Of a DNA stretch of 64,000 bases, positions 30,612 through 58,630 are shown piece by piece. The notes under the pieces are model-generated. The model was given only the letters and a program-made list of their open reading frames with translations. It did not search any database and was not told the DNA's origin. The stretch comes from an uncultured delta proteobacterium (lineage in GTDB: Bacteria > Myxococcota > Myxococcia > Myxococcales > Myxococcaceae). A program made the position numbers and the translations under genes. The DNA lies in the NCBI GenBank assembly GCA_963771175.1, contig CAVYSY010000054.1:125838-189837 (forward strand), read 5' to 3'. Every line of letters starts with the position of its first letter. Position 1 is the first letter of the stretch.

Positions 30612-30747
30612 GCCGGGTATGCGCACCGCCAGGAGATGGCCGGGGGGGCGGGGCGTCCCTTCGTAGCAGATGCCGCCGGACCCGGCCACCTCCGGGGAGG
30701 CGCCCGAGGAGCAGGCGAGCAGGCGGGCCCCTCCGTGCATGCTCGGC

Positions 30748-31347
30748 CTATGCGTGCGCGCGCGGTTTACGCCCCGTGTGGATGCCGTCCAGGATGACGC
30801 CCAGCATGCGGGGGAAGAGCTGCTCCGCGGACAGCTCCAGCTCGGCCAGGACGTCCGGCCGGAGGAGCTGGTCCACCAGGGTGAGCACCATGCGGAGGAC
30901 GAGGCGGGGCTCCACGTCCGCGCGGAAGGCACCGGCCTTCACCCCGGCCGCGAGGAGCGAGCCGAAGCGGGCCTGCACCGACTCGCGGCGGAGCTCCAGC
31001 AGCCGCTGCCAGAGGTTGGGCGCGTCCCGCTGGAAGTCTCGGAGCACCGAGGCGGCGCTCGCGTAGCGGCCCGTCAGCGTTCGGATGAAGTGCTGCAGGC
31101 GCTCGCCGAAGTCGAGCCGCTCGTCTCCGATGATGCCGTCGAGCTCCGCGCCAATCCGGGCGAAGCTGGCCGTGAGGGCGGCCTCGCCCAGCTCCTCCTT
31201 GCTGGAGAAGTGCCGGTAGAGCGTCTTCTTGCTCATCCGCAGCTCGGTGGCGAGGTCATCCATCGTCACGCGCGAGTAGCCGTGGGTGAGGAAGAACTGC
31301 TCCGCCTTCTCCAGGATGCGCGTGCGCGCCTCGTCCGCTTCGCTCAC
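30748..31347 (-). CDS. TetR-family transcriptional regulator
   Basis: RILEKA...GYSRVTMDDLA...SKKTLYRHFSSKEEL; GTG overlaps the P450 stop. Confidence 0.9.
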   Translation of the reverse strand: MSEADEARTRILEKAEQFFLTHGYSRVTMDDLATELRMSKKTLYRHFSSKEELGEAALTASFARIGAELDGIIGDERLDFGERLQHFIRTLTGRYASAASVLRDFQRDAPNLWQRLLELRRESVQARFGSLLAAGVKAGAFRADVEPRLVLRMVLTLVDQLLRPDVLAELELSAEQLFPRMLGVILDGIHTGRKPRAHA

Positions 31348-32799: not shown

Positions 32800-33890
32800 C
32801 AGCGTGAGTCTGACTTGCCCGCTCGGGCTAACCTGCTTGTGTGCGCGATGACCAGGGCTCTGTTGGCAGTGCCTTCGTCTGCGCTCGGCACTCAGTCGAG
32901 CTGGCCCAAGCTTCACGGGCTCGGAACAGACCCAGTGACTGGACGTAGATGGCAGGCTCGATGACACGCGGATTCTTAATCGAGGAATCATCGCCTCGAC
33001 AGGCAGCCAATGAAAGCAGTCCGTGTCGGCCGGCTCAGGTGCTATGCTCTCCGACAGGACCTTGCCGCATAGTGATCTTCCTCGCGGTTCAGAGCGTGGG
33101 GTCTGGAGGTAACTAGATGCACATGCCAGGGGCATGTGGCCGATAGATAGTCGGCCGAATGCTCGTTGATGCTTGGCCAAGTGAATGAGCACCTACACTC
33201 CAGGAGTCTGGGAAGCGGGCTAGGTAGAGTGCTTGCATCCGAATTAGGGTGCGTTCGCGAAGTCCAACTCACATGAACTCACCGCACACGAAGATTGCAG
33301 CACTTCAGTCCACCGCCACGCTCAAAAGACGATTGGCGAGGCTCGAGTATCGCCGGTCGGAGGACCTTGAGAGTGTTCAGATGATTATGCCGCTCAAGAG
33401 CAGGCTGTCGGGCTTTTTGCGAATGATCTGCACTGAAGGTTGATGCGTTAAAGGTCTTTTACGGCGTGCGCGTCAGTGCCGTTCTTTGATGTCGATGTCA
33501 GCGAAGGATTCCGCACCTCTGCAGGCTTTGATGCCGTCCCATTAATGACCTGCGTGCATCGAAGACGAAGAACTCTCCAGGGTATATCCAAGCGAGTCCA
33601 GGCTCGGGCATCAATCCACCGAGTTTCCCGATGGCCGCCATGACTGAAGCCGGTCTGCCACGCAGGCGAGTACCTCTCATTCACCGACACGAAGGAATGA
33701 ACTACCAGCGTAGGCGTCTCTGTTGAGGGGTGCTCGACGCCCTCTCTACTTCAGCCAAGCTCGCGCTACCGCAGGCCAGTGGCTCTGTCGGCGAACTCTT
33801 GGAGGCAGATGATACGCGCTTCGCTGTCTCGATTAGAGGGCTGGTTGGGGCTGCCATGGCGCTAAAACCTTGTTGTACGAGAGTGCGCGA
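32800..33890. other. Low-GC segment without a credible ORF
   Basis: Two hand-counted lines give 52% and 57% GC against 72% for a line inside the RT; only short ORFs without myxobacterial GC3 bias. Confidence 0.6.
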
Positions 33891-35319
33891 TGCGGGTTAC
33901 GCTCCGCGCCTCCAGCGCGGCGAGCCGCTCCAGGAACGCGCGGCCCTTCGCCGGGTCCGTCATGTGGATGAAGGCGGCCATGCCCTTGAGCTGGTCGAGC
34001 GTCTCGCCCTCCTTGCCCGGCTTGCCCTTCTCCCGGTTGTGCAGCGCCGCTCGCAACTGGCGCACCACCTCGCGCGGCACTCGCGCCCCGGGCTGGCCCT
34101 TCGCGGCCTCGTTCACCACCAGCCCCGTCACCGCCTGCCGGTTCCCCGGCTTCATCACCCGCGTCTTGTCCGGATGCACCCGGAAGCCCTCGGCCTCCAG
34201 CACCCGCTCCACCCGGGCGATCAGCACCGCCACCGGCGCCTCCGGCTTCGTCTTGCTCTTGCGCCAGGAGAACGTCAGGTCATCCGCGTAGCGCGTGTAC
34301 GTGAAGCCCAATCGCCTCGACAGCGCCGACAGCCGCTTGTCCAGGCGCAGGCACAGCGCGTTGGTGATTCCCGGAGACGTCGGCGCCCCCTGCGGCAGCG
34401 CTCGCGGGCCCTTCGCCACGTACAGCGTCTTGCCTCGGAACTGCACCACCTCGCGCGGCGCCTCCGTGGCCATCAGCGCCAGCAGCGTCGCCGTGTTCTC
34501 CGGCAGCCCGCCCTTGCGCAACACGCCCTTCACCCGCCGCCACGTCACCGAGGGGAAGAAGTCCTTGATGTCCATCTTCACCAATACGTCCGCGCCCTTG
34601 TGCGCCAGCGCGTTGGTGACGATGGACCGCCCCGCCACGAAGCCGTGCGCCGCCCCGTGCACCGGCAGCCGCTCCACCACGTTCGCCAGCACCCAGCGCT
34701 GCGCCGCCTTCAGCTCCTTCTTCGGCGCGGTGATGGTCCGCTTCCCTCCGTCCCGCTTGGGAATCTCCCAGCTGACGTAGTGCGTCCCCGTGTCCACCTC
34801 CCGGTGGTAGGCGAACCAGCGCAGCCTCGCCACGCTCAGCCCCAGCGCCTTCGACAGCGACTGCGCCGACTCCAGCTCCGGCAGCTCGTTCGCCTTCGCC
34901 CGCTCCTCGCGGTCCTTCAGGTCGAACGCGTCCGGACCCGCCGCCTCGCTCCAGTGCACCCCCGCGCCCAGGTGGTTGATGTGCGTGGTGCGCCACGCCT
35001 CCCACGCCAGGCGCTCCAGCGCGCGGCGCTCGGCGGCCTCGGCCTTCTTCTTCTCCTTCCAGGCCGCCTTCTCCTTCTCGGAGAGCTCGCTGACGTCCTC
35101 GTGCTCGGGCGCGAGCCCCTTGGCCTTCAGCTCGGCGTCGACCCACGCCTCCTTGCCACCGGCCTCCTCAATCGCCTTCCAGCGGGCCAGCCGCGCCTGC
35201 TCCTCGCGCTGGCGCACCTCGCGCTGGGCCACCACGTTGGCCGAGGCGGGCGCCGGGGCGGGGGAGGACACCACCGCGGGGGCCGCGGCGGGGACGAACG
35301 TCTCGAGCTTCGCGGTCAT
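33862..35319 (-). CDS. ret: Retron reverse transcriptase, Mx162/Sa163-like
   Basis: IPKRDG, AHGF, NALAH (region X NAxxH), DIKDFF, LPQGAPTSP, YADD, VTG (region Y); long N-terminal extension; RBS GAGGTG. Confidence 0.96.
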   Translation of the reverse strand: MTAKLETFVPAAAPAVVSSPAPAPASANVVAQREVRQREEQARLARWKAIEEAGGKEAWVDAELKAKGLAPEHEDVSELSEKEKAAWKEKKKAEAAERRALERLAWEAWRTTHINHLGAGVHWSEAAGPDAFDLKDREERAKANELPELESAQSLSKALGLSVARLRWFAYHREVDTGTHYVSWEIPKRDGGKRTITAPKKELKAAQRWVLANVVERLPVHGAAHGFVAGRSIVTNALAHKGADVLVKMDIKDFFPSVTWRRVKGVLRKGGLPENTATLLALMATEAPREVVQFRGKTLYVAKGPRALPQGAPTSPGITNALCLRLDKRLSALSRRLGFTYTRYADDLTFSWRKSKTKPEAPVAVLIARVERVLEAEGFRVHPDKTRVMKPGNRQAVTGLVVNEAAKGQPGARVPREVVRQLRAALHNREKGKPGKEGETLDQLKGMAAFIHMTDPAKGRAFLERLAALEARSVTRIAHSRTTRF

Positions 35320-35405
35320 CGAGGCACCTCGGAATGGCGAGCGGGCTTCATCCGGGGCGGGGCAGCACGGCGCGAGCGGTCGAGGGAGGCCTGGAACAAC
35401 ACCAC

Positions 35406-35567
35406 CTGCTCACCTGGGGCACGGTAGCCTCACCGGCTCTCCCCGGTAGAGGGGTCTAGGCCCCTTGGGGAAACGGCGGTTGCGTCGTTGGCTCAGCTCC
35501 CCGAGGGGCCTAGACCCCTCTACCGGGAGAGAGCCAAGAACAGGCTACCTTGCGGAGAGTGTCCAGC
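35406..35567 (+). other. msd: msd: predicted msDNA (~162 nt; the + strand equals the cDNA)
   Basis: GGTAGCCT/AGGCTACC base stem plus ~37-bp stem 35435-35471/35498-35535; ends (CACCTGGGGCACGGTAGCC, CCTTGCGGAGAGTGTCC) match Mx162 msDNA as I recall it. Confidence 0.85.
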
Positions 35568-35637
35568 ATTGCATCCAGAGCGGCGCAGCGCCGCTCCCGC
35601 GCTCGAGGCGCTGAGGCTGATGCTTTTCCGGACCTCT
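35560..35637 (-). ncRNA. msr: msr RNA with predicted branching G at 35617
   Basis: AGAGGUCCGGAAAAGCAUCAG with the G directly after the stem; hairpins at 35599-35611 and 35578-35596; 3' end overlaps the msd 3' end. Confidence 0.82.
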
Positions 35638-35766
35638 CTCGACCGCTCGCGCTACCTGGCGCGTCTGCCGTGCTTCGTCGCGTCCGCCCCTCCCGGCCGC
35701 GAGGAGCGCGACCGGACAACCGTTGGGATTTCTACACCATCCTGGAAGCCGAGTCGATGAACGGCG

Positions 35767-36498
35767 TCATTCATTCCAGGGGCGCAGCGGGGTGAGGAGG
35801 CCGGCCTGGGCGAGGCGCTCGGACACGTCGCGGGCCAGCTCCACGTGGGCGGGGTTGGTGGCGGTGAAGCGCTCGGGGGTGAGGATGACGAGCGTGCCCT
35901 TGTCCTCGACGGGCTCGACGTGGACGGGGGAAGGCAGGGGGGGCAGCGGGCCGCGGCGGTGGGAGAAGTACATGAGCCAGCCGACGAAGGCGCCGGCATC
36001 GGCGGATTCCGGTGCCATCATTCTCCGAAGCTCGTGGGAGGTGGTGACGCCCCATTCGGGTTCGAAGGCCATGGCCATGGCGCGCAGTATCCGGGCGAGC
36101 ACGGGGGCCTGGAGCACGCGCTCCCTGGCGGGGCCTTCCTCCGGCGGGTCGAACAGGCACAAGTTGGAGACCCAGACGGATGCATCACCACAGAGGAACG
36201 ACATGGTGCTTGCTGCCTCATCGGTCTTCCCATTCCAGCCGCTCAGCGAGAAGCCCTCGTCGGCGAAGCGCCCCTCCTTTTGCGCTTGCTGGTTGAATAC
36301 TCTCGCGAGACTCGCCGCATCGGATTCAATGCGATGCTTCAGCGCCTCCTCGAGGGTCCGGCCTTTTCTGAACCAGTGAGTGAGGCTCGGGTCGCATGAG
36401 GCCAGCAGGCGAAAGAAGGACTCGGCACGCTGAGCACAGGCCTCGGCCGACTCTCGCCGCGCCAGCCAGTAGGCTCCAACATAATAGGTTTCTTGCAT
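35767..36498 (-). CDS. Imm52-family immunity protein
   Basis: METYY.GAYW..R.ES...CA, GFSLSGWN, VGWLMY, PLPSPVHVEPVEDKGTLVILTPERFTA.NP.H; follows a REase toxin. Confidence 0.88.
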   Translation of the reverse strand: MQETYYVGAYWLARRESAEACAQRAESFFRLLASCDPSLTHWFRKGRTLEEALKHRIESDAASLARVFNQQAQKEGRFADEGFSLSGWNGKTDEAASTMSFLCGDASVWVSNLCLFDPPEEGPARERVLQAPVLARILRAMAMAFEPEWGVTTSHELRRMMAPESADAGAFVGWLMYFSHRRGPLPPLPSPVHVEPVEDKGTLVILTPERFTATNPAHVELARDVSERLAQAGLLTPLRPWNE

Positions 36499-36507
36499 GC
36501 TGCGTCC

Positions 36508-37885
36508 TCACTGTGCTGGCGGGGGGAAGACCTTGATACGGCCGCGGCTCTGTTTCTCGAGCAGATCTCGCATGACGTCTGCTACCTCGCGCTCGGCGAA
36601 ATGCCACTGGATGGGAGTCCCATTGGCTGCTCTGAGCTGTCGCTGGGCCTGTGTCGAGCATCTCCTCGACGCCTTCGAACCACGGCTTGCCGTGCATCTT
36701 CTTGAGCAGTTCCCGGTAGCCGGGTCCCTTGACCTCCAGGAGCACGCCGTTCTTGAAGCCGTCGAAGTCCACGAAGTCCCTGGGCCCTGGCCCGGTGCGG
36801 ACGCGGTAGACCCAGCCCTCGGGAGCGCCCGTTACCTCGGTTTGATAGCGCCGCGAATCCTCGGACATGCTCTCCGTCTTCTGCTCCCATTGGCCGGGTC
36901 CCGCGGGGGTCGGTGGCCATGAGCCGAGAGCGCTGGCCGGGTTGTTGCCTTGCGCCATGAAGACGATGGAGACCGATGCGGCACCGGCCCCCACCGCTGC
37001 GGTCGTGGCTCCGGCCGGCACCGTCAGCTCACGCACGACCAGTGCACCCCGGGCCGACACGGTGAGCACCGGAAGTCGCGAGGCCGAGGCCATCCGAGGT
37101 CCCACCGTGGCCGCACCGCCCTGGAGCGTCAGCAGGTGCGTGGCCAGTCGCGCGGCCTCGCGAGTCTGGTCCTCCAGGTTCATCGCCCCATAGCGGGCGA
37201 AGTACTCGGGGGAGTGGGCAATGAGGCCAGCCACCGCCGAGGGCAGTTGGGCCAGTCCTTCCAGGGTTCGCGCTGGTTCGGTGATGAAGGCCGCCAGGCC
37301 GCGCGCCATCTCCTCCAGTGCGTCCTCCGCGCCCAACAGCGCGGCGGTGGCGGGGTCTCGTCCCAGGGGCCGTTCGCCGACGGGAAGCCCTTGTTTCCGC
37401 AGGGCCTCGTCCACGGCGTAGAAGACGCCACCCTCGTCGAAGTGGAAGGCGCCCACGCGCATGCGCTGCACGTACAGCTCACCCTGGTGGAGGCTGGGGT
37501 GGCCCAGGTTGGCCACGGGCTTCCCGGTGAGCGCCACGGCGCAGTAGCCATCCGGGCGAACCACCACCAGCCGGCGGAAGCGCTCGGTGCGGGCGAGCAG
37601 CTCGGCGTAGGGCAGGGGCTGTCCGGTGGCGAGGGTCTCGCGTACCAGGCGGGCCAGCGCGGTGCGGGGCGCGAAGGTCCGAAGAGTGGCGGGGCTCTCC
37701 AGCAGGCCACGCCAGAGGGACCGGGCCTTGTCCGGGGTGAGGGACTGGCCCGGAGTCAGGTGGACGGACTCCGGAAGGCCGGAGTGCCGCAGGAGCACCT
37801 GGAGCTCATCCGCCTCGGCGGCGAGGGCACCAGAGGCCAGCAACAGCACGGCGGCCAGGAGCGCGGCGGGGGTTGGAAACCTCAT
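36508..37885 (-). CDS. Polymorphic toxin with C-terminal Tox-REase-5 domain (frameshift near 36652)
   Basis: GPGQW...ESMS..SRRYQ..VTG, DFDGF...LLEVKGPGY; shifted frame reads QAQRQLRAANGTPIQWHFAE...PPPAQ* (TGA 36508-36510); signal peptide, RBS GGAG. Confidence 0.85.
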
Positions 37886-37941
37886 GGCTCCATGCTGGCA
37901 GGTGCCACGTACAACAGCCACACTGCCGACCCTGCCTCTTC

Positions 37942-39543
37942 TCAGGCCTCCTCGAGGAGGAGGCGGCCGCAGCGGTCGCCAATCATCATCGAGGGGGCGT
38001 TGGTGTTGCCCGAGGTGACAAAGGGCATGATGGCGGCGCTCGCCAACCGCAGGCCCTTGACGCCACGCACGCGCAGCCGCGGGTCCACCACGGCCAGGTC
38101 ATCCGTGCCCATCTTGCACGTGCCCACCGAGTGGAAGTCGGCTTCGGAGTACTGCCGCAGGGCCTCCACCAACTGCGCATCGCTGGCGATGCTCGGGCCG
38201 GGGGTGTGCTCCACGTCCTCCACCCAGTCGCGCAGGCCCGGCGCGCCCAGCAGCTCGCGGACGAGCTTGTAACCCTCGAGTTGATGGGCGACGTCCTCGT
38301 CCGTGCCCAGGAAGTTCGGCTCGATGATGGGGCTGTCCCCGTGGTCCGCCGAGCGCAGCTTCACGGTGCCTCGGCTCGTCGGGTGCAGGTTGATGAGGCC
38401 GAAGGCCAGCGCCTCGGAGGGGTAGGAGCCCCAGCCGTAGCGCATGTAATACGTCTGCACCTGGAACTTCGGGCTTCCCTCCTGCGGACCGTTGCCCACG
38501 AAGAGGTTCACGTCCATGGTCGTGGTATGGGAGGCGGGCTCGGGTTGCCGCAGCTTCCTCACCGCCACCGAGACGAGGTGGTCGTGCAGGTTCTTCCCCA
38601 CTCCTGGCACGTTGGCCACCACGGGAATGCCATGGGGCGCGAGCTCCTCCGGAGCGCCAATGCCCGAGAGCATCAGCAGGTGGGGCGTCTGGATGGTGCC
38701 CGCGCAGACGATGACCTCGCGACTGGCCTGCACCGACATCTCCCCGCCGTCGCTGTCGAGGATGACGCGGTCGAGCTTCTTCGAGTCATCGAAGACGAGG
38801 CGCTTCACCCGGGCGTTCATCATCAGCGTGAGCCGGGGGTTGGCCAGGTGCTGTGAAACGAAGGCGGAGAAGGCGTCCTGGCGGAGGCCGTCCACCACGT
38901 TGAGCTGGGTATAGGTGACGCCCAGTTGGTTGTCGCCGTTGTAGTCCGCGTTGAAGGGGTAGCCGAGGTTGACCGCTGCCTGGACGATGGCTTGGGACAG
39001 CCCGTGTTGCGCGGTCAGCGCGTTCGAGGGACGGATGGGTCCGCTCAGGGCCTGGAACGAGGGCTGGACGCTCGCGAAGTCCCAGCCGGTGCACCCGGCG
39101 GCGGCCCAGCCGTTGTAGTCGGCCTTGTTGCCGAGCACCCAGACCATGCCGTTGATGGAGCTGCTGCCGCCGAGCACCTTGCCGCAGGAGTAGGACTGGG
39201 GCTTGCCATTCAGCGCGGCCTGCGGCTCGGACTTGTAGGCCCAGTCTGTCGCGGAGCCCGGCTGCGTCATTTTCCAGGACTGGGTGAAGTCCCTGACCTC
39301 AGGGAGCTCGTTCGTGCCTCCGGCTTCGATGAGGAGCACGCGGGCCTTCGAATCATTGAGGAGCCTGGCCGCCAGCGTACAGCCCGCAGAGCCGGCGCCG
39401 ATGATGATGTAGTCGTACTCCTTGGAGTCCGAGCACCCGATGAGCGTGGGCATCGCGAGCGCGGCACCCGAGAGGCCGAGGAGCTTCAGAAGCTCGCGAC
39501 GGGAGTACCTGCCAGCTGCTGCCTTCTGGAGGAGAGCCTTCAT
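37942..39543 (-). CDS. GMC oxidoreductase, Tat-exported lipoprotein
   Basis: SRRELLK Tat motif, LIGC lipobox, YDYIIIGAGSAG, GKVLGGSSSIN, GKNLHDH, FHSVGTC, GNTNAP. Confidence 0.92.
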   Translation of the reverse strand: MKALLQKAAAGRYSRRELLKLLGLSGAALAMPTLIGCSDSKEYDYIIIGAGSAGCTLAARLLNDSKARVLLIEAGGTNELPEVRDFTQSWKMTQPGSATDWAYKSEPQAALNGKPQSYSCGKVLGGSSSINGMVWVLGNKADYNGWAAAGCTGWDFASVQPSFQALSGPIRPSNALTAQHGLSQAIVQAAVNLGYPFNADYNGDNQLGVTYTQLNVVDGLRQDAFSAFVSQHLANPRLTLMMNARVKRLVFDDSKKLDRVILDSDGGEMSVQASREVIVCAGTIQTPHLLMLSGIGAPEELAPHGIPVVANVPGVGKNLHDHLVSVAVRKLRQPEPASHTTTMDVNLFVGNGPQEGSPKFQVQTYYMRYGWGSYPSEALAFGLINLHPTSRGTVKLRSADHGDSPIIEPNFLGTDEDVAHQLEGYKLVRELLGAPGLRDWVEDVEHTPGPSIASDAQLVEALRQYSEADFHSVGTCKMGTDDLAVVDPRLRVRGVKGLRLASAAIMPFVTSGNTNAPSMMIGDRCGRLLLEEA

Positions 39544-39645
39544 GAATGTCTGTCTTTGTTATGGGGTCGAGGGCCGGGAAGGGTGTCCTCTCCGGCGCCC
39601 CGCTTCATAACGGACCGCGAACGTGCTGGCGACTCGTTCCGCCGG

Positions 39646-44400: not shown

Positions 44401-47400
44401 TCGCGGAAGTAGTCGAGCGGCTTGTGGCGCAGTTGCAGCACCTGGGCGGCGGCGTAGCGCTGCTCGGGCACGTCGCTGGCGAGCGCCTCGGCGAGCCCCA
44501 CCATGCGGCGGGCGCGCTCGTCCTCGGCGGGCCAGTCCTTCATGTCGCCGGCCTTCTCGGGCCGGGGCGGCTGCAGCACCTCCACCAGGTGGGCGTGGGA
44601 GGCCTCGGTCTCGGTGCGCAGCTCCAGCGCGCGGGCCGCGGCGTAGCGCACCTCGGGACGGCCACTGGAGAGGGCGCTGGTGAGCAGGTCGGGCGGCTCG
44701 CCCCGGCGCGAGGCGCGCAAGTCCCGGGCGAGGATGATGGCGAAGACGGTCTCCTGCACCTCGCGGGACTTGTCCTCCAGGCCGTGCAGCAGGCCGCTGT
44801 CCCCGTCCGGCCCGAGCGCCGCGAAGGAGAGGATGGCGCCGATGCGGATGGGCTCGTGCTCGTGGCGCAGGTTGCCGGTGAGGACGGGCAGGGCGCGGAT
44901 GTCACCGAGGCGCGACAGGCCATCCGCGGCCCACGAGCGCACCGCCACGTCCGCGTGGCCGAGCGCGTCGAGCAGGTAGCCCTCGTCTCCCCGGCGGCTG
45001 GCGGTGGCGAGACCGCGGGCGGCCTGCTCGCGCACCTCGCTGGCCTCGTCCTTGAGGAGGGTGGTGGCGAAGAAGGACAGCAGCCGGCGCGAGCCGAGCG
45101 TGGCCAGGGCGCTCGCGGCGCGGTGGCGCAGCGGAGCGAGGAAGGCCGGGGGCCAGATGCGCTGCAGCTCCTTGTCGGTGAGGAGGTTGCGCATCGGCTC
45201 GATGATGTCCTCGGCACCCCGAGCGGCGAGCAGCTCGGCCGCGCGCACCTTCAGCGGCAGCTCGCTGGAGCCGAGCCCCGCGAGCAGCGGGCCGTTCTCC
45301 TCCTTGATGAGCTTGTCGAGCGCCTCGATGGCGGCGAGGTACACCACCGGCTCCTCGGCGAGCAGCAGCTTGAGGAGCGGCGAGCGCATCGTCTCGGCGG
45401 GGGCCTGGGTGGCGTTCTTCGCGGCCAGGGCGCGCAGCGAGGCGAGGGCGGTGTCCATGGCCGCGAGGTGCGGCTCGGGCTTCTCCTTGCCCACGTGCTT
45501 CACCCACGCCTCGTAGGCGGCCTGGGCCACGCCGGCATCGCGGTCACCCACGGTCTTCTTCAGCCGCTCGAGCGCCCAGTCCTCCTTGATGCGGGCGGCG
45601 AGCTCATCCACGGCGCGGCGGCGCAGGTCCGGGAAGCGGCCGGCGAGGGCGCGGTCGATGGCCTCCTGGGGGTTCTTCTCGTTCCAGGCCCAGAGGGTGC
45701 GGAAGGCCTCGTCGCGCACCTTGGCGGACTCGTCCTCCAGGGCGTCGCCGAGCAGGTGCACGGCGTTCTCGGAGCGCTTGCCCGAGAGCTTCACCAGCCG
45801 GTCGAGGCCGCGGACGCGCACGTCCTCGTGGGCCGAGCGCAGGGCGGCCTCGGCGCTGGAGAGGGGAGACTCGCCGGCATCGAGCGTCACCACCGCGTCG
45901 AGGGCGGTGGCGCGCACGTCCGCGTTCTCGTCATCCAGCATCCACACGAGGCGCTCGCGGGCGCGGGCGTCCTGGAGGGCGCGGAGGGCCTCGGCGGCCT
46001 GCCGGCGGATGGCGGCATCGGGCTCGCGGGAGAGCTGCAGCAGGGCACCCAGCGCCCGGGCATCCCCGAGCTGCGCGAGGCCCCGGGCGCCGCGCACGGC
46101 GGTGTCCGGAGTGCGGCAGGCCATGGCGGCGAGCAGCGGCTCCAGGCTGGCCTCGGCGAGGGGCTCGCCGGCCTTGCCGGTGGCGGGCAGGGCCTCGCGA
46201 GCGGCACGGGCCTCGTCGTCGGTGGGGCGGGCGCGGCGGGTGAGGCGCCGGGCGACGTCCAGGGCGGCGCGAGCGAAGTCCGCGTCCTTCTCCTCCAGCA
46301 CGTGGGCGAGGGGCCGGCGCTCCAGCACGCGCACGGTGAAGGCCACGCGGCGCACGTCGGCATCCGCGTCATCGAGGGCACGCGCCACCAGGGGCTGCAA
46401 CTGCGGCGAGCCCAGCCAGCCGGCACCGGCGGCGCGGATGAGCACCTCGACGCGCAGGTGGGCGGGGCCGCGCTCGAAGGCCGTCTTCAACGGCTCGGTG
46501 CTGTCCTTGGGGGACACCTGCACCAGCACGTCCAGCGCGGTGACGCCCACGGTGGCGTCCGCGTCCGTCAGCTTGCTGGCGATGAGGCCCGGCACCAGCG
46601 GAGAGGTTCCACCGAGCGAGGCCAGCGCCCGCAGGCCGGCGATGCGCGTGTCCGGGTAGCGCGAGTCCAACGCGGCGCGCGGGGCGGCCAGCGGGGACTC
46701 CTTCTCCAGCGCGGTGAGGGCCCACAGCGCGGCGACGCGCACCAGCGTGTTGTCATCGTCCAGCCGCTCGCGGAGCTTCGCGCGGGCGCCGACGCGGCCG
46801 TGCTTGCCCAGCTCCTCGGCGGCCAGCTTGCGCACCTCGTGCTCACGGTCCGCGGAGAGCACGGAGAGGACGAAGTCGAGCGCCTCGGGCTCCTCCAGCG
46901 CGGCGGCCTCGCGCACGGCGGCCTCGCGCTTGGGTCGGTTGGCCCGGCGGGCCTCGTCCAGCAGGTCGAAGCCGTGGGCGAACGAGGTGGCATCGGTGGA
47001 GGGCTTGCCCTCGGTGTCCAGCTCGAAGCGGCGCACCGTGCGGTCCTCGCCGCCCACGTAGAGGAGGCCGAGCTGCACCTTGGCCTGCCGCGAGCTCACC
47101 GGCGGAGCGAAGGCGAGGGCATGCACGGGCTTGCTGCCGCACTCCAGCGTGCGCGGCTTGCGGCGATCTTCCAGTCGCCACGCCTTCACCTTGCCATCGC
47201 TGCCGGCGGAGAAGATGCGGTCCGAGGCCTCCTCGCCGCGCTCGGGCGTGGGAGTCGGGGGGAAGAGGAGGGCGAGCACGGAGCCGGCATGGCCGGAGTC
47301 CTTGTCCCCGCGGACCTCGGACTCGACGGCGCCCACGAGGTACCAGATGCGCAGCTTGCCATCGTCCCCGGCGGACACGAGGCGCCCGTCGCGCGGGGTG

Positions 47401-47951
47401 AAGGCGAGCGCCCGCACCGCGCCCTCGTGGCCGGGCATGTCGCGCCGGGCCCCGTTGGCGAGGGTGAAGGAGCGCACCACCGAGTCATCACCCGCACAGG
47501 CGGCATAGGTGCCGGTGGGGTCCACCGCGACGGCGCGCAGGGGCTGCGGCGAGGCCTGCCACTCGTGTACGCGCTTGCCCTTGCCGAGCTCCCAGGCGCG
47601 CAGGAAACCATCCATGCCCACGGTGAAGGCGCGGGTGCCGTCCGGATTCACGGCGACGGCGGTGCAGGCGCCAGTGTGGGCGTCCTTCACCTCGCGCTGC
47701 ACGGCTCCGTCCCCGAGCGCGCCGATGCGCACGGCGCCATCCGCGCAGGCGGCGACCCAGCTCTCGCCGGCGAGGGCGAGCCCCAGGACGGCGGCGGGAA
47801 GCTCCACGCTCCAGGCCACCTTGTTGGTGGAGGGCTCGTAGGCGGTGAGGCGGCTGCTGGCCGAAGCGCGAGCGCCTCCGACGAGCAGCAGGCGCGCATT
47901 GGCGGCGAGCGCGCGGACCTTTTCGTAATGGCCGATGGCGAGTGTAGCCAT
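41487..47951 (-). CDS. Giant WD40 beta-propeller + HEAT-repeat protein (2154 aa)
   Basis: N-terminal GH...SAGDDGKLRIW-type repeats, then dozens of D.D..VR..A..AL HEAT units. Confidence 0.92.
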   Translation of the reverse strand: MATLAIGHYEKVRALAANARLLLVGGARASASSRLTAYEPSTNKVAWSVELPAAVLGLALAGESWVAACADGAVRIGALGDGAVQREVKDAHTGACTAVAVNPDGTRAFTVGMDGFLRAWELGKGKRVHEWQASPQPLRAVAVDPTGTYAACAGDDSVVRSFTLANGARRDMPGHEGAVRALAFTPRDGRLVSAGDDGKLRIWYLVGAVESEVRGDKDSGHAGSVLALLFPPTPTPERGEEASDRIFSAGSDGKVKAWRLEDRRKPRTLECGSKPVHALAFAPPVSSRQAKVQLGLLYVGGEDRTVRRFELDTEGKPSTDATSFAHGFDLLDEARRANRPKREAAVREAAALEEPEALDFVLSVLSADREHEVRKLAAEELGKHGRVGARAKLRERLDDDNTLVRVAALWALTALEKESPLAAPRAALDSRYPDTRIAGLRALASLGGTSPLVPGLIASKLTDADATVGVTALDVLVQVSPKDSTEPLKTAFERGPAHLRVEVLIRAAGAGWLGSPQLQPLVARALDDADADVRRVAFTVRVLERRPLAHVLEEKDADFARAALDVARRLTRRARPTDDEARAAREALPATGKAGEPLAEASLEPLLAAMACRTPDTAVRGARGLAQLGDARALGALLQLSREPDAAIRRQAAEALRALQDARARERLVWMLDDENADVRATALDAVVTLDAGESPLSSAEAALRSAHEDVRVRGLDRLVKLSGKRSENAVHLLGDALEDESAKVRDEAFRTLWAWNEKNPQEAIDRALAGRFPDLRRRAVDELAARIKEDWALERLKKTVGDRDAGVAQAAYEAWVKHVGKEKPEPHLAAMDTALASLRALAAKNATQAPAETMRSPLLKLLLAEEPVVYLAAIEALDKLIKEENGPLLAGLGSSELPLKVRAAELLAARGAEDIIEPMRNLLTDKELQRIWPPAFLAPLRHRAASALATLGSRRLLSFFATTLLKDEASEVREQAARGLATASRRGDEGYLLDALGHADVAVRSWAADGLSRLGDIRALPVLTGNLRHEHEPIRIGAILSFAALGPDGDSGLLHGLEDKSREVQETVFAIILARDLRASRRGEPPDLLTSALSSGRPEVRYAAARALELRTETEASHAHLVEVLQPPRPEKAGDMKDWPAEDERARRMVGLAEALASDVPEQRYAAAQVLQLRHKPLDYFREAAKVARPRSLEAPWKPETTPQAKPVSEKPARNWLRRLFSTATGKAATAEPSPEALVSAEKQHLRRLAFGAYVGLLRQVSAGDDEGHRVRRDAVDRVVKLTLEGHAGTPAAVAALLRALEDPHQLVRKAALAGLKELYPAGSDEPLALALASLSPDVARAALDELATRGESAKGRITAALNSPLADVRKYAFELLERLSPPGSLEPLLAALGSEHADLRVGVIERLAGANDSRVTEALGRAMGSEHEDLRLRAAELLAMRADDRAVEVLAAFLRSENATVVNRAQEALARLGSVAAVGALAARLRTATELTERLALVKFLGRTRRPEALEPLARQLDDEAHPVRLACVSAAMDVATAPEKDEKGERKRDAALAVRFLRSAVRSPDPMVRKAAATELEQGDDVGQDELLAGLFADRDVTVRMESVARYASRVMHKGAKVEPLEEVLRGGTRELMLPAAEGVASRGLTSALRPLLLYVRAGEEGDRERALLALGTLGDARALPELEQVAAGGTPEAPVEQSMVAAALEGLGRLAAKLPEGEDRHRAEEKVELAALEAKDTALQQAGVRGLRYIGGERARSRLETLLRDDDTDNEVRITAAQELGKLGDTAAEGALAHALDEWDDELRTEARKALDALFPKERVRVELLAVNSEQEDISEPAASYLATEADPMQLLPRLATLDSEELRQRLRRGLVRRASLPAGALAMLLGHEKPAAREEAAWLVGARTGEEESSRGWSADDRVTLGRAIMNAERRTASEWASTPGPKRAPVASAWERLLWAGSRLGVAELAKAAKDILQGGEAKAPAGVRLEAARALDRLNAAPEPLRPALSDPDAQVREAAATALARLAPERAADWALAVQPFDPVATSATGVAVRTPKQLATDEARRLALPSLLADKQMEPLRPLATHKDETVRQDVWAALGRLGGSDAAEVLRAQAFDKTQSVELRKAAYRAHKRALRAAERARKEGSQP

Positions 47952-48024
47952 GCGTCAGAATCCTCCGGACGGAGGGGTTTAGCACAGGTGAACAGCGGGG
48001 AGATTGAAGGGCAGTCGTGGCCCG

Positions 48025-48216
48025 GTGCGACTCACCGCCGGGTGGCTTCATCGGTTGAGCAGGCTTGCGCTCCTGTTGTTGCTCACGGGATGCGCCGCAC
48101 AGCTCCCCTCCAGGGCTCCTCGGTGGTACGGACAGAGCAGTCCTGTCTCCGCTCAGGGCTTGCCGGCTACGGCGAGCGGTGGACTGCGAACCGTCGAGAT
48201 CGACTTCGTGCCCTGA
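48025..48216 (+). pseudogene. Internally deleted lipoprotein (toxin-like) remnant
   Basis: Intact signal peptide and lipobox LLLLTGC, then only ~40 residues ending VEIDFVP*; 17 bp before an immunity-like gene. Confidence 0.55.
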
Positions 48217-48233
48217 CAAGTGAGACCCAACCG

Positions 48234-48962
48234 ATGACCAAGAACATGAAGGGCTTGCTCCTGGAGGACCGCTGGGCACCCATCACGTCGGAACTGGGAT
48301 TCCTGGAGATGGGTGCGGAGCATGCCGCTCGCGCCTTCGCGGCGTGGCAGGCAGGGCTGCATGCGCCCCGTGGCATTGCCGTGGAGGTGCGCCCGGTCTC
48401 GGGCACGCTGGAGCAAGCCCTCTCCTCCCTGCTGCCCCTGACCAGTCCGGAGAGTCGGCGGGATCTCTTCATTCCGACACGCAGCCCCTGGACGGCGTAC
48501 GTTGAAAACGGGTGGGGCGGGACCGATGCCGGGAGCGTCATGTCCTATATGGCCCGGACGCTGGGCTGCCGGGGCATGCGAGTGGTCGCGGTGCCCCACA
48601 CCCTGCGCAAGGACAAGGGCCGTTATGGGGCCGTGATGTTCGAGCTGTACGGACCCAAGGAGACGGACTGGCTCAACTACCTGCGCACCCTCTATGTCTC
48701 CAACGATGGAGGCCACTGGGTCTTCGGCCAGTCCGGTGAGCCCTTCCCCTTCGAGAAGCTGGAGCGGTACCAGGCGCGCAAGGTGAGGGACCGCTTCACC
48801 TTCGAGATGCTCAAGGAGTACCTGCACCACCTGGGGCTGTCTCCCTTCCAGGAGGACTTCTACCTGCCCCAGGGCGCTCCCGCCTGGCTCGTGGAGAAAA
48901 CGGGGACCTTCGTCCCCGCTCAGAAGGAGTACACCCTCGCTCAGGCCCGAGAGAGCTTCTGA
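48234..48962 (+). CDS. Hypothetical protein, probable orphan immunity protein
   Basis: 242-aa ORF with normal codon bias (LLLEDRWAPITSELGFLE...NDGGHWVF.QSGEPFPFE); on the opposite strand between two retron-associated genes. Confidence 0.7.
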   Translation: MTKNMKGLLLEDRWAPITSELGFLEMGAEHAARAFAAWQAGLHAPRGIAVEVRPVSGTLEQALSSLLPLTSPESRRDLFIPTRSPWTAYVENGWGGTDAGSVMSYMARTLGCRGMRVVAVPHTLRKDKGRYGAVMFELYGPKETDWLNYLRTLYVSNDGGHWVFGQSGEPFPFEKLERYQARKVRDRFTFEMLKEYLHHLGLSPFQEDFYLPQGAPAWLVEKTGTFVPAQKEYTLAQARESF

Positions 48963-48971
48963 CGCCTGGTG

Positions 48972-51692
48972 TCAGAGCCCTCCGAGTTCCACGCTGGGGT
49001 GCGCCGAGCGCAGCCTCACCAGCGATGCCAGGCAGCTCTGCCACTCGCCCTTCGCCATCGAGCCGGTGAACTCACCGAGCACGGGCGCCACCACACGGGC
49101 GAAGCTCTCGTCTTCCAGTCCCAGGTCCCTCACCAGCTCAATCACGCGGCGCTTGGCCTCGCTGGCCGGGAGCCTGCGCGCCACCACGCCCTCGCGGGCC
49201 TCCTTGGAGCGCCCCGGGGGCAGGCCGAAGAGCATGCGGCGCAGGAAGGAGCGCAGGGCCTCCACGTTGGCGAAGCGCTCGGTGGCGGCCACGGGGGACT
49301 CCTTGGCGCCCGAGGGCTTCCACCCCTCCGGCAGGTGCAGCGGCCGGTGCTTCTCCCACAGGAGGCGGATGGCGAAGAGGCCCACCTCGCGGTCGGCGCT
49401 CTCCATCAGCCACGCGAGGCGCTCGGGCCCACCCAGGCGCGCGTAGTGGCGGCGGATGAGCTCCACGGCCACCTCGCGCGTGGAGCGCTTGGTGCTCTCG
49501 GAGAGGGTGAACACCTTCACCGGGTCCAACTCGTCCGGGGTGAGGGTGCGGCGCTTGTCGGCGCCCTCCTCGCCCGCGTCGAGCAGGGCGTCATAGGCGA
49601 GGTTGCGCACTTCCTTGGCGTTGGCCTCGGCGAGCTCGTACACGCGGGTGTGCCAGCCCCAGGCGCGCAGCTCCACGCGCGTCACCGCGAGGGCGAAGTG
49701 GCGCACGTCGTCGCGGGCGTCGAAGAGGGCGGGCCACAGGCGCTCGGGGGTGTACGCGTTGCGAGGCGCCTTGGGCTTGAGCTGGAAGGACTTGGACTCG
49801 GGCTGCTCGGGGCCGATGACGGGGTGGTGGCAGCGCAGGTACGTCTGCGCGAAGGCGCGCACGGGGGCGGGCTGCTTCGCGCCGAGCGCCAGCTCGAAGA
49901 GGCGCGCCAGGCCCGCGGTGGCGTCGCCGGACTCGCTGAAGTCGGCGGGCACCACGTTCTCCAGCAGGTAGCGGTGGGCGAACTCGTGCAGCGTGGGGTC
50001 CGCGCGCCGGGCGAGCGCCAGCAGCCACGGAATGCCCACGTCCCGAGGCGCGAAGAGCTTGCGGTTGCCCAGCAGCTTCAGCGCCACCTCGCGGAACTTC
50101 GCGTTGAAGACGAGCCCCTTCACGCGCTCCACGTCCAGGCCGGGCAGCGCGTCCGCCTCGGTGAGCCAGTCGGAGATGGTGTCGCCGAAGCTCGGGTGGA
50201 TGGAGCGGTCGAGCAGCCAGTCGGCGCCGATGTCCGCGGGCTTGAAGCCCTTGAGCGAGTCGAGGGCCAGCTCCTCCACGTCGCTGCCGTAGGACTCCAG
50301 GCGCTCGTCATCGAGGAGGGCCTTCCAGAAGGCGGGGGGCAGCTCGCCCTTGCCGTACTTGGACTTGAGGTAGCGCAGCGCCCACTCGGTCTGCTCCTCG
50401 TCGCCGAAGAGCATGTCGAAGAGGAACTTCTGGGGGAGCTCGGAGCGGTCGAAGCTCTGCTCCAGGGCCTTGGCGGCGAACTTCGCGGTGGGCTTGTGGA
50501 CGAGCAGCCGGCCGAGGAAGTCCGGGCCGAGCTCGCGCGGGTCCCTCTTCTCCAGCACGGCGGCGGCGTAGGCCTTCACGTCGTTGTGGTCGCCCTCGAG
50601 CAGCTCGGCGAGGCGCTCGACGGGGAGGTCCTGCGCGTGGGCGCGGGCGTACTCGATGGCGTAGGCGCGCGCCTTGTTGCTCTCGGAGACGAGCAGGGCG
50701 AGCACCGCCTCGTGCAGCCCGAGCGCGCGCAGCTTGCCCTGGTGGAACTCGGGCGAGCCCTGGAGGGTCTCGATGAGGAACTCGTGGGCGCTGGCGAGCG
50801 GGCGGCGGGCGAGCCGGTCCAACCAGGCGGGGGTGACGTTGCCGCGGAGGGCGTCGGGGAAGTCCTTGCGCAGGCCCTGGATGGCGAAGCGGGCGGCGGG
50901 GTCCGACAGGCAGGTGTCGAGCAGCCGCATGAGCGGATCCGCCGAGCGCTTCCACGCCTCGGTGAAGGCGCGCTTCTTCACCATGTCGCTGGGGGGCTCG
51001 ATGGGGAAGGTGTTGGCGGAGTAGTTGCCCGTCTCGTGGGACCAGAGGTGGTTGGAGACCCAGCACGAGCGCCACGAGGTGTCGGGCTCGTAGTGGCGGA
51101 GCACCTCGATGGCGAACTGGGGGTAGAGCTCGGGGACGGACTGGCCGAGCTGGCGCAGGTAGCGCCACGCGCGCCGCTGGAGGTAGGTGAGGGTGCCCCG
51201 GGAGACCTCGCGGGAGCGGTGGCCGGAGCGCTCGGTGTCGAAGCGCCAGGCGAGGACGCCGAACATCTCGGCGTCATGGCGCTCCTCGGCGAGCTTGTAG
51301 ATGCGCTTGAGGCCGCCCCAGAGGCCGAAGCGGAGGTCCGCCTCGCGAGCGAGCTGGAAGAGGGCGGCGCGGGAGGCGCTGGTGTTGCGCTCGTAGAGGG
51401 CGACGAGCAGGTCGGCGAGGGCGAAGCGCGAGGGGAGCGGGACGTCCTTCTGGGCGAGGTAGCGCTGCCAGGCGTCGCGAGCGCCGGAGTGGCGGGCCTC
51501 GGCGGAGTGGCGGGACTGGGCCTGGGAGAGGAGGGAGCGGAGCCCGTCGAAGGTGAGGGCGCCCTGGGGGAGGGAGCCGGGCGTCTTGTCGGGCTGCTCG
51601 AGGAAGGCCAGCACGGCCTCCGCCAGGTCGGGCGCTTCCGCCCGTGACAACCGCTCCAGGTCCGCTGTCGTCAGCTCGTCGCTCGTAGCCAT
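48972..51692 (-). CDS. Large alpha-helical (ARM/HEAT-like) protein, 906 aa
   Basis: Helical repeats throughout (DARDDVRHFA, SADREVGLFA); co-oriented with the WD40-HEAT, SWIM and RT genes. Confidence 0.8.
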   Translation of the reverse strand: MATSDELTTADLERLSRAEAPDLAEAVLAFLEQPDKTPGSLPQGALTFDGLRSLLSQAQSRHSAEARHSGARDAWQRYLAQKDVPLPSRFALADLLVALYERNTSASRAALFQLAREADLRFGLWGGLKRIYKLAEERHDAEMFGVLAWRFDTERSGHRSREVSRGTLTYLQRRAWRYLRQLGQSVPELYPQFAIEVLRHYEPDTSWRSCWVSNHLWSHETGNYSANTFPIEPPSDMVKKRAFTEAWKRSADPLMRLLDTCLSDPAARFAIQGLRKDFPDALRGNVTPAWLDRLARRPLASAHEFLIETLQGSPEFHQGKLRALGLHEAVLALLVSESNKARAYAIEYARAHAQDLPVERLAELLEGDHNDVKAYAAAVLEKRDPRELGPDFLGRLLVHKPTAKFAAKALEQSFDRSELPQKFLFDMLFGDEEQTEWALRYLKSKYGKGELPPAFWKALLDDERLESYGSDVEELALDSLKGFKPADIGADWLLDRSIHPSFGDTISDWLTEADALPGLDVERVKGLVFNAKFREVALKLLGNRKLFAPRDVGIPWLLALARRADPTLHEFAHRYLLENVVPADFSESGDATAGLARLFELALGAKQPAPVRAFAQTYLRCHHPVIGPEQPESKSFQLKPKAPRNAYTPERLWPALFDARDDVRHFALAVTRVELRAWGWHTRVYELAEANAKEVRNLAYDALLDAGEEGADKRRTLTPDELDPVKVFTLSESTKRSTREVAVELIRRHYARLGGPERLAWLMESADREVGLFAIRLLWEKHRPLHLPEGWKPSGAKESPVAATERFANVEALRSFLRRMLFGLPPGRSKEAREGVVARRLPASEAKRRVIELVRDLGLEDESFARVVAPVLGEFTGSMAKGEWQSCLASLVRLRSAHPSVELGGL

Positions 51693-51983
51693 CGAGCGGA
51701 GGGATTTACCACAGGTGCACAGTGGGGTGGGCGTGCCGAGGCGCGCGGAGTGCTACCCGCCGGTAGTGGGTATGCCTGTGCGGCGCCCGGTATCATCGCC
51801 ACCCACGACGGAGTCTCCCCAGGCCGCTCGTAGTGAGCTGCCAGCGACGCCAGCGCGGCAGGTCTCCGCTCGAGGGCCACGGCGGGGCGCGTGGCGTTGA
51901 GGTCGATGCGCTGGGGTCCAGCATGTGGACTGGGGACGGGCCGGGGCCTGAGGTGTAGAAGAGGGGCGAGAGGAGGCACTCGC

Positions 51984-52797
51984 ATGGCGGACGCGAAGCG
52001 CGGGGAGGACGGGAGGCTGGGACCGTATCGGCTCGGCAGGCGGCACGGGAGCAAGAACCCGGAGCTGGAGGAGCTGGGTCGGCTCTACGAGGCGCACAAC
52101 GTGCACACGGACGCGTCGGCGCTGGTGCTGGTGCCGGCCCCGGGCGTGTGCGAGGAGCCCGAGGAGGACTGGAAGGTGCGCGTCACGGCCCAGGCCCGGC
52201 CTCCCTGCGTGGCGGTGGAGGTGGAGCAGGCGCCGGCCTCGGGAGAGCTGGCGGGGCTGGCGGGGCTGTTCGAGGTGCTCACCCGCATGATGGAGCGGAT
52301 GGAGTGGAGCGACGAAGCGCGCCGTCACCTGACGCGCGAGCCGGAGGGGAGGCTGAAGCGGTGGGCCGCGGGCGCGCGCCGGGTGCTGGGGTGGGGGGCG
52401 CAGTACGGAATCGAGCTGAGCGTCGCGGTCCTGATACTGCTGTTGGTAGGGGCGCACCTGCTGGCCTACATCGAGAGCCAGCGGGGCGAGCAGTACGAGG
52501 CCGCCGGGGTGGCCGTGCAGGCCGAGGAGGAGGGCCGTGCGCCTACGATGGTGGACACGGGACGACATGGGTCCGGCGGTCATCGCCTATCCCCTGCCAG
52601 CAAAGCCTTTCAGCGATCAGGCGAAGGCGCCGTGCAAGTCCAACCTGCACGAGGTGGAGTTCGACGGCGGCTGCTGGTTGGAACTCGCAGTGCGTCCGCC
52701 GTGCGGGGAGAACTACGCCGAGTATCAAGGCAAGTGCTACGTGCCGGTCTCGGCGCGCTCGCGGAAGCCGCGTGAGCCGCAGTCCATCCACCCGTGA
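51984..52797 (+). CDS. Myxobacterial membrane protein with kinase-associated Cys-rich C-terminal domain (frameshift near 52560)
   Basis: GRLGPYRLG...LGRLYEAHNVHT N-terminus, one TM, PLPAKPF..Q.KAPC...GGCW...PPC...YQGKCYVPV tail. Confidence 0.7.
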
Positions 52798-54035: not shown

Positions 54036-54665
<630 letters not shown>

Positions 54666-58535: not shown

Positions 58536-58630
58536 GGGGCAGGAGCAGCAGCCGGGCCTCCCGGCTCGGTGTCTGCCGAGGGAGAGGCGTCCCTACATTG
58601 ACCATGAATTCTCATGGCAGGGGACGAGTC

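Follow-up and report, generated by a model that had tools for sequence, protein, structure and literature searches.

Mx162, the multicopy single-stranded DNA (msDNA) of a myxobacterial retron, was the first retron product to be seen (in 1984) and is given with a 162-nucleotide (nt) msd and a 71-nt msr (Simon 2019). Our literature searches found no work showing what this msDNA does. In the classification of Mestre 2020 (PMC7736814), retrons of this kind are type XIII, with reverse transcriptases (RTs) of clade 10 (including Mx162, Mx65, Sa163 and Ne144) and, as partner, a protein that combines a winged helix with a C-terminal SWIM zinc finger CxCx12CxH (cluster 114_1). One or two HEAT/ARM genes stand ahead of the SWIM gene, the two-gene variant being formed by clusters 259_1 and 1688_1. 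The same paper describes the parts of type XIII as co-evolving, gives a correlation of 0.78 with 16S and regards domestication or a role other than defence as possible. A survey of 2026 (PMC13712802) again gives the SWIM protein as the recurrent type XIII partner. Here we describe a locus of this type in 64,000 nt of DNA (the window) from an uncultured delta proteobacterium (Myxococcaceae; contig CAVYSY010000054.1, positions 125,838 to 189,837). The window has a high GC content (63-76% per 2-kb block) and is most closely related to Archangium and Vitiosangium genomes (SWIM protein 95-96% identical), and its minus strand carries eight genes and one non-coding RNA (ncRNA) gene between positions 33862 and 51692. 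Judged by its sequence matches, this locus is almost certainly the Archangium orthologue of the myxobacterial Mx162-type retron, type XIII. Its architecture is already in print and recognised by PADLOC, and the locus is no new kind of system.

Type XIII membership is assigned because the PADLOC models RT_XIII, SWIM_XIII and HEAT-ARM_XIII match all four proteins of the locus, which are encoded, like all genes described below unless noted otherwise, on the minus strand. The motifs YADD, VTG and NALAH are hallmarks of retron RTs, and all three are present in the 485-aa RT (33862-35319; YADD at residues 344-347, positions 34279-34290). This protein matches RT_XIII at 1.4e-160 (533 bits versus 302 bits for the next-best model) and Pfam RVT_1 at 8e-23, is 70-76% identical to the RTs of Myxococcus and Corallococcus loci and possesses an N-terminal extension, as Simon 2019 gives for myxococcal RTs. 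The first accessory gene (48972-51692) encodes a 906-aa HEAT/ARM solenoid protein, which matches HEAT-ARM_XIII (PDLC02921; E=0) over residues 6-902 of 906 and matched no Pfam family. The second (41487-47951) encodes a protein of 2154 aa with a WD40 β-propeller (Pfam WD40 and β-propeller models at residues ~14-283) and HEAT repeats (HEAT_2, 3e-89 across 14 stretches); residues 1-2150 match HEAT-ARM_XIII (PDLC02919; E=0). The third (39646-41490) encodes the 614-aa SWIM protein of Mestre cluster 114_1, matched by SWIM_XIII at 9e-159, a model that reaches to about residue 521. The SWIM gene starts with a GTG that overlaps the TGA stop of the WD40-HEAT gene as GTGA, and through this overlap it is translationally coupled to its neighbor. 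A sequence-only reading of the window had proposed five co-oriented parts on the minus strand, a GTGA overlap and an Mx162-like RT, and had named type XIII as the class to which they belong; all five parts are present where it had placed them, and the overlap, the RT match and the class assignment stand.

With a clade 10-type RT, a SWIM partner, two preceding HEAT/ARM genes and an msr-msd adjoining the RT gene, the locus has the composition of type XIII. It is most similar to Retron-Mxa1 (Mx162, Myxococcus xanthus) and Retron-Sau1 (Sa163), with which it shares the RT_XIII clade, the long N-terminal extension of the RT, the ncRNA core, the CAGC priming context, the cluster 114_1-like SWIM protein and the variant with two HEAT/ARM genes. 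Indeed, two M. xanthus loci of our survey (L020 and L021, see below) have the same gene order as the window, with RTs 72-73% and SWIM proteins 80-81% identical. Unlike Mx162 and Sa163, the window has a 3.9-kb insertion between the SWIM gene and the msr-msd and a 1-kb spacer that splits the solenoid genes; furthermore, its distal msd stem differs in sequence but stays paired. The locus is also similar to the type XIII retrons with a WGR-HEAT/ARM partner (cluster 216_1) in that the SWIM protein is shared and the 906-aa protein partly matches WGR_XIII (model positions 209-624 of 973, 3.7e-46), i.e. its solenoid part. However, the N-terminal WGR part of this model has no counterpart in the 906-aa protein, and the form found in Myxococcota has instead a WGR-like domain at the C-terminus of the SWIM protein. 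In a protein-atlas search, the 906-aa protein fell into its own clusters, with leads (<0.9) to DUF4132/DUF5724 and HEAT+WGR clusters. In a search for relatives of this protein that bear a WGR domain, the 120 matches listed are all near-full-length Myxococcota orthologues of at least 52% identity. The spacer between both solenoid genes (47952-48971, 1,020 nt) is lineage-variable. It contains no convincing open reading frame (ORF), its ORFs have no Pfam match, and similar DNA was found only in the Archangium loci L001, L003, L044 and L046 (78-97% identity). The corresponding junction is short in many genera (7-45 nt) and measures 1-3.4 kb in Archangium and ~1 kb in loci of the M. xanthus group.

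The msr-msd gene (35370-35652) was recognised by its inverted repeats, fold, nhmmer match and covariation. Its a1 (35618-35652) and a2 (35370-35404) arms, of 35 nt each, are 83% complementary, and the long msd hairpin (35419-35553, 135 nt) has distal arms (35498-35527 and 35442-35471) that are 97% complementary. The fold of the 301-nt region has -202 kcal/mol (z = -10.5), a stability reached by none of 100 shuffles. With these arms, this hairpin and this fold, the claim of an intact msr-msd in the sequence-only reading is borne out. Besides the a1/a2 stem and the long msd hairpin, the ncRNA of the window possesses the msr hairpins and the priming G, which lies at 35617 within CAGC, directly 3' of the end of the a1 arm; the CAGC priming context is the one given for Mx162 and Sa163 (Simon 2019). 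An alignment of 21 orthologous regions (nhmmer match of the window at 35372-35650, E 1e-79) contains long blocks without variation and gives a consensus structure of 94 pairs, with compensatory changes in 53 of these pairs. Of the cells in paired columns, 93.2% are paired, versus 80.1% in column shuffles (the observed value being reached in 0 of 500), and sliding the pairing partners lowers the proportion to 41-47%. Hardly any variation is seen in the msr hairpins and at the base of the msd stem, and the distal msd stem varies freely in sequence with its pairing kept. A 16-nt invariant motif of the msd occurs once in the window (0.02 expected). Given the intact YADD-bearing RT and this ncRNA, the RT would make an Mx162-like msDNA.

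No Rfam family reaches its gathering score anywhere in the 64-kb window. Under relaxed Rfam settings the msd hairpin drew miRNA models, all sub-threshold, and these were rejected as reflecting a generic long hairpin rather than homology. The hairpin has no match in 50,697 phage records, and a spacer-like target is thus not indicated. Some genomes possess two msr-msd copies, either in tandem before the RT gene (e.g., 11922-12197 and 12302-12577 in L010; 11894-12169 and 12222-12496 in L012) or, in L060, with one copy after it (11947-12222 and 13911-14186); L049 and L052 are further two-copy loci. The cores of paired copies are near-identical, and their distal msd arms are unalignable with each other, each being self-complementary.

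The co-occurrence of these parts was surveyed across Myxococcota. A SWIM profile search of contigs, with one genome per species, returned 379 relatives; from these, the 80 best loci were retained together with 10-kb flanks, and the window proteins were placed in them by tblastn. The SWIM protein is 58-96% identical across the 80 loci. An RT gene follows it on the same strand in 67 of the 70 loci with at least 2 kb of downstream sequence, and in 60 of these 67 the gap is 700 nt or less. The WD40-HEAT gene lies directly upstream of the SWIM gene in all 65 loci with at least 6.6 kb upstream, and the 906-aa gene is present in 56 of the 63 loci with at least 9.5 kb upstream (in the remaining 7 loci it may be located past the flank). 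A profile of the msr-msd found homologues in 70 of the 80 loci (nhmmer), and the 16-nt msd motif is present in 69. The three loci without RT (L001, L004, L007) all belong to Archangium. As an msr-msd match lies at the contig end in L004 and as L001 shares the large cargo that displaces the RT by 8.5 kb in L046, only L007 looks like a possible RT loss. The expectation that the three partner genes would co-occur with the RT was therefore well founded: together with the msr-msd, they are found across two Myxococcota classes.

In the window, unrelated genes occupy the 3.9 kb that separate the retron cassette from the three large genes, which could suggest that the adjacency of the cassette and the large genes is due to chance. 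The survey refutes this explanation, to which we attach practically no probability: order and strand are the same in the 67 of 70 loci from two classes, the divergence of the parts is correlated, and Mestre 2020 (PMC7736814) came upon the association independently, starting from the RT. For 38 loci with four near-full-length proteins, plus the window, pairwise distances of the RT, the SWIM protein and the two solenoids correlate with r = 0.96-0.995. The four protein trees have 25-26 of 36 splits in common, and in each of them the Sorangium/Chondromyces-type loci are separated from the Myxococcus/Archangium-type loci. As kinship alone gives such correlations, the distances show co-inheritance and not contact. 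Furthermore, the downstream flanking genes are conserved in 27-28 loci of Myxococcus, Corallococcus and Pyxidicoccus, which indicates a stable chromosomal site. The four proteins and the ncRNA are thus inherited together and vertically, in a syntenic locus. The dN/dS ratios (nonsynonymous to synonymous substitution rates; 0.11-0.59, lowest for SWIM) are rough, since the extreme GC bias at third codon positions (GC3) depresses dS, and can be taken only as a rough sign of purifying selection. A full Myxococcus-like retron locus (L024; SWIM 80%, RT 71%) was also found in a record titled Comamonas sp. KCTC 72670, an assembly that may be mislabelled or mixed.

In one respect the sequence-only reading has to be corrected. 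It had placed the retron within a single large operon and had overlooked three genes on the same strand that form a 3.9-kb block and split the SWIM gene from the msr-msd. These encode a GMC-family FAD oxidoreductase (37942-39543; Pfam GMC_oxred_N and GMC_oxred_C), a Tox-REase-5 polymorphic-toxin-like protein (PDC-M17A; 36326-37921; Pfam 7.5e-7, PADLOC 6.6e-134) and an Imm52 immunity protein (PDC-M17B; 35767-36498; Pfam 6.5e-90, PADLOC 1.9e-103). Directly past the Imm52 stop codon there is a 30-nt relic of the SWIM gene (35732-35761), which corresponds to its last nine codons and stop (FIDSASRMV-stop) and aligns with the SWIM 3' ends of the window, L002, L003, L005, L008 and L044; the DNA past the relic matches the sequence after the SWIM stop codon in L002. 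The GMC gene was found by tblastn in none of the 80 related loci, the toxin in three (L005, L006, L008) and Imm52 in five (L005, L006, L008, L044, L046), all of Archangium, and the GC3 of the block (GMC 0.91, toxin 0.77, Imm52 0.82) is lower than that of the retron genes (0.95-0.97). The relic, the rarity of the cargo in other loci and its lower GC3 show that the block entered at the 3' end of the SWIM gene and that a short stretch was duplicated. It is a later, Archangium-specific insertion and no part of the retron. In the ancestral arrangement, the SWIM stop lies ~400 nt before the RT start, with the msr-msd between them. Despite the insertion, all retron parts are still intact.

The toxin gene with its immunity gene lies directly upstream of the msr-msd on the same strand, contains a restriction-endonuclease-fold toxin domain and matches the PADLOC candidate PDC-M17, and could be taken for the real effector module of the retron, with the solenoid and SWIM genes as bystanders. 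This is very improbable and already contradicted by the distribution of the pair: it is confined to the few Archangium loci named above, the RT cassette comes straight after the SWIM gene in 60 loci, and the SWIM relic and the GC3 of 0.77-0.82 mark the pair as inserted. Moreover, the pair brings its own immunity gene and is therefore a self-contained module. As listed, the toxin ORF runs 173 nt past the start of Imm52 (36326-36498), and relatives of the toxin align only up to residue ~423. The true end of the toxin may thus be earlier; alternatively, its long tail may be an accident of GC-rich DNA without stop codons.

The SWIM/msr junction is an insertion hotspot in Archangium that gathers candidate defence cargo. 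In L008 (11858-13679), it contains a gene for an ABC-type ATPase matching PADLOC HEC-01A, AbiLi and AriA together with a gene for a 224-aa partner, and this pair adjoins the PDC-M17 pair. In L046 (11880-18890) and L001 (15060-21508), a divergently oriented cluster VWA_CoxE - DUF5682 - AAA_5 (MoxR-like) is present, which also holds 535-aa and 191-aa unknown proteins. The 535-aa protein was considered as a relative of the SWIM protein and rejected, as no similarity was found (hhalign probability 0.6%). Tolerance of insertions at this junction suggests that the msr-msd and RT may have their own promoter, and expression of the accessory operon is probably separable from that of the RT cassette. 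Scans of 33700-52200 revealed 0 promoter-like sites and 4 terminator-like sites (5.0 expected), both results being uninformative in GC-rich DNA.

The full-length AlphaFold2 (AF2) model of the SWIM protein, made from a 12-sequence alignment, has a pLDDT of 74.2 and a pTM of 0.58. A Foldseek search of the Protein Data Bank (PDB) with this model gave at least 423 matches at E<=1e-3 (best E 4.8e-7, probability 1.00), and the best 50 listed are all PCNA, sliding clamp or 9-1-1 entries, with TM-scores by target of 0.45-0.64 over ~270-350 columns. Among the viral models of BFVD, there were 77 matches at E<=1e-3, with PCNA, DnaN and herpesvirus processivity factors as the top named ones. Residues ~1-335 (40486-41490) are therefore predicted to have a fold like that of PCNA and sliding clamps and not that of a DDE transposase, a resemblance that is newly seen here. 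The clamp rows listed are 6-16% identical to the SWIM N-terminus. By sequence, no clamp homology appeared in a PDB profile search, and residues 1-335 have no Pfam match at E<=10; hence the N-terminus is here termed clamp-like by its fold and is not assigned to the clamp family. The SWIM profile gave a single chance match among PDB sequences (E 0.8), the C-terminal 95 aa gave none better than E>0.7, and the N-terminus found unnamed or SWIM clusters only in the protein-atlas search. Our literature searches found nothing that links retrons with clamp-like proteins.

A second AF2 model, of residues 345-614 (39 sequences, pLDDT 92.0, pTM 0.77), shows a winged-helix-like segment (helix-helix-helix-strand-strand at residues ~357-411), a beta-rich module with the SWIM finger and a terminal beta-beta-beta-beta-alpha domain. 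The finger (C493, C495, C508, H510; 39961-40014) has the form CxCx12CxH, is invariant in the family alignment and scores 18.3 bits with Pfam SWIM, under the cut-off of 19.6. The terminal domain (39661-39879), which contains an EWGPR motif, is a WGR-like candidate. The only four Foldseek matches of this model at E<=1e-3 are DasR winged-helix regulators and 2ra8, which we take to be a WGR protein; 2ra8 is also the best domain-level match of the terminal domain (root-mean-square deviation (rmsd) 1.4 Å over 68 columns). The single-strand binders Whirly and PUR-alpha match residues 345-614 at probability 0.6-0.87. The wider SWIM family (1,254 representatives at E<=1e-3) includes many members of ~550 aa without the C-terminal domain. 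One member (P0164, aligned to the family at hhalign E 1e-78) has a true Pfam WGR domain (3e-18) inserted between winged helix and SWIM finger, another (P0170) a C-terminal BRCT domain (1e-15), and two (P0078, P0112) are named 'WGR domain protein' by the Joint Genome Institute (JGI). The WGR and BRCT domains of P0164 and P0170 are DNA-damage-sensor modules. The occurrence of a WGR-type module on either partner in different lineages, i.e. on the solenoid or on the SWIM protein, hints that both partners may work together.

A different function has been suggested for the N-terminal region by the published classification. Mestre 2020 gives a motif Dx7[D]x4Ex30-32Dx37E and files type XIII among the nuclease-associated retrons (PMC7736814), according to which the SWIM protein would be a nuclease effector, a transposase-derived DEDE enzyme (Mutator/IS256-like) restrained by the RT-msDNA as other retron toxins are. 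Indeed, all 58 sampled family members have E127, and acidic residues are common at positions 114 (52/58), 122 (51/58) and 159 (50/58). However, E199, the last position of the motif, is acidic in just 30 of 58, the motif region models as a PCNA-like clamp fold, and no transposase or RNase H-like entry is among the best 50 matches listed for the PDB or BFVD. Neither Pfam nor NCBIfam nor PADLOC gave a nuclease or transposase family for the SWIM protein, and it matched no solved nuclease by sequence. The clamp-like fold and the fact that E127 is the only invariant position of the motif make us doubt the nuclease function, which we regard as improbable; catalysis is conceivable. We know of no invariant acidic residue in clamps comparable to E127.

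On this basis, a mechanism can be proposed for the retron, tentatively and as one possibility that we would not call probable. The RT would make an Mx162-like msDNA of ~160 nt, whose hairpin and ends may be held by the SWIM protein through its clamp-like, winged-helix, SWIM and WGR-like modules; the protein would consist of nucleic-acid-reading modules only. The GTGA coupling might set a fixed ratio of SWIM to WD40-HEAT protein, and these two, with the 906-aa solenoid, could build a large scaffold around the RT-msDNA, in which the solenoids and the WD40 propeller would serve as scaffold or sensor surface. Damage to or capture of the msDNA, or a foreign protein on the solenoids, may then free a DNA-binding module, which would act on replicating DNA. 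The output would more likely be stoichiometric (binding or blocking) than enzymatic.

The explanation as a whole, i.e. an Mx162-type retron with the ancestral three-gene accessory module and a later insertion, appears likely to us, and a number of observations have to be weighed against it and the tentative mechanism. The PADLOC type XIII models were built from this family, so that their scores show membership and not function. Two of the 80 loci (L001, L007) have neither RT nor msr-msd within 10 kb downstream. In five Polyangiales-type loci (L055, L056, L069, L070, L078), the RT starts 31-36 nt past the SWIM gene and no msr-msd homologue was found within the flanks; in L055, L069 and L078 there was also no convincing inverted repeat or long hairpin for an msr-msd. 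The full-length SWIM model is only moderately confident, and its structural superpositions have rmsd values of 7-12 Å. The label SWIM/WGR of the sequence-only reading is upheld in its SWIM half (SWIM_XIII, CxCx12CxH), and its WGR half is a weaker candidate: the terminal domain has no match to Pfam WGR (PF05406) or PADLOC WGR_XIII at E<=10, and no PARP WGR is among the best 50 Foldseek matches listed for residues 345-614. Scans with Pfam, PADLOC and NCBIfam revealed no toxic or catalytic effector domain in any partner, and the fold searches agree with the earlier remark that no obvious toxic catalytic motif is present in the three. Our literature searches turned up no experiment on any type XIII retron. 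Finally, vertical inheritance, conserved flanks and purifying selection are unusual for defence islands.

Vertical inheritance and conserved flanks fit a domesticated role at least as well as defence. The locus might be a cellular machine with a core function in Myxococcota (surveillance of DNA structure, replication or repair, or regulation), which would share only its ancestry with defence retrons; we consider this conceivable, if short of probable. Gene order is the same in loci titled Archangium, Hyalangium, Myxococcus, Corallococcus, Pyxidicoccus, Sorangium, Chondromyces and Labilithrix. The conserved downstream flanks (27-28 loci), the congruent trees and the SWIM identity of 58-96% point in the same direction, and clamp, BRCT and WGR modules are characteristic of proteins that replicate or repair DNA. 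Domestication was suggested by Mestre 2020 (PMC7736814) together with the 16S correlation mentioned above, and Simon 2019 refers to vertical inheritance and to the presence of msDNA in 27 of 28 myxobacterial strains. However, the characterised retron types named in the abstracts and listings that our literature searches returned all act in phage defence, the Archangium SWIM/msr junction collects candidate defence cargo (PDC-M17 and the HEC-01A/AbiLi-like ATPase of L008), and type XIII RTs in Bacillota, Planctomycetota and Bacteroidota suggest some mobility (PMC13712802).

The favoured Mx162-type retron can be further compared with characterised systems. As described in the literature, Eco1/Ec86, Eco7/Ec78, Eco8, Eco2 and the type IX retron Kva2 likewise combine an RT, an msr-msd and co-inherited accessories, with the msDNA presumed to be the sensor. 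However, these retrons carry recognisable enzymatic effectors (nucleases, ATPases, glycosidase-like proteins), whereas in the window locus no enzyme besides the RT was detected and the partners, totalling 3,674 residues, are made up of scaffold and DNA-binding modules. According to Simon 2019, horizontal transfer or a link to prophages is seen in many retrons of E. coli and Vibrio, while the window locus is inherited vertically. The likeness to PCNA/DnaN clamps and viral processivity factors is limited to the predicted fold of SWIM residues ~1-335; unlike in PCNA and DnaN, the clamp-like part is fused to winged-helix, SWIM and WGR-like modules, and there is no clamp loader nearby. The relatives P0164 (WGR) and P0170 (BRCT) recall PARP-type DNA-break sensors, and the WGR domain of PARP2 is described as recognising 5'-phosphorylated DNA breaks. 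Unlike PARP, the SWIM protein has no ADP-ribosyltransferase domain, and its own WGR-like domain is missed by the Pfam model.

Three further features of the window lie outside the retron. Downstream of it, positions 26499-30932 (minus strand) encode a protein of 1477 aa that combines adenylate/guanylate cyclase, AAA_16 (STAND-like) and TPR domains and weakly matches PycC (Pycsar cyclase), and which is a conserved downstream neighbor in the Archangium loci L003, L005, L008 and L044. A Uma2-family putative restriction endonuclease (PADLOC candidate PDC-S03) is encoded at 54036-54665 (minus strand). At 58253-60128 (plus strand), a gene for a thermolysin-type M4 protease (protealysin-like) is followed by one for an Emfourin-family inhibitor; both are unrelated to the retron.

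For the biology of the family, the survey means that across Myxococcota the five parts are inherited as one unit. In the SWIM protein, the supposed 'DEDE nuclease' region looks like a sliding-clamp fold, and relatives of this protein carry WGR or BRCT domains; the clamp-like fold, these WGR- and BRCT-bearing relatives and the insertion-tolerant SWIM/msr junction are the useful additions to what is in print. They also allow an alternative picture, speculative and in our estimate rather unlikely, in which type XIII would be a clamp-based nucleoprotein machine and not a toxin-antitoxin suicide module. The SWIM protein would grip or ride the msDNA hairpin, caged by ~3,000 residues of HEAT/WD40 protein, in a DNA surveillance system inherited vertically since before the split of Myxococcia and Polyangia, with stoichiometric blocking of replication or of foreign DNA as its output. 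The distal msd stem may then be free to vary and to be duplicated into alternative versions. If the clamp reading is true, type XIII would work unlike every retron characterised so far.

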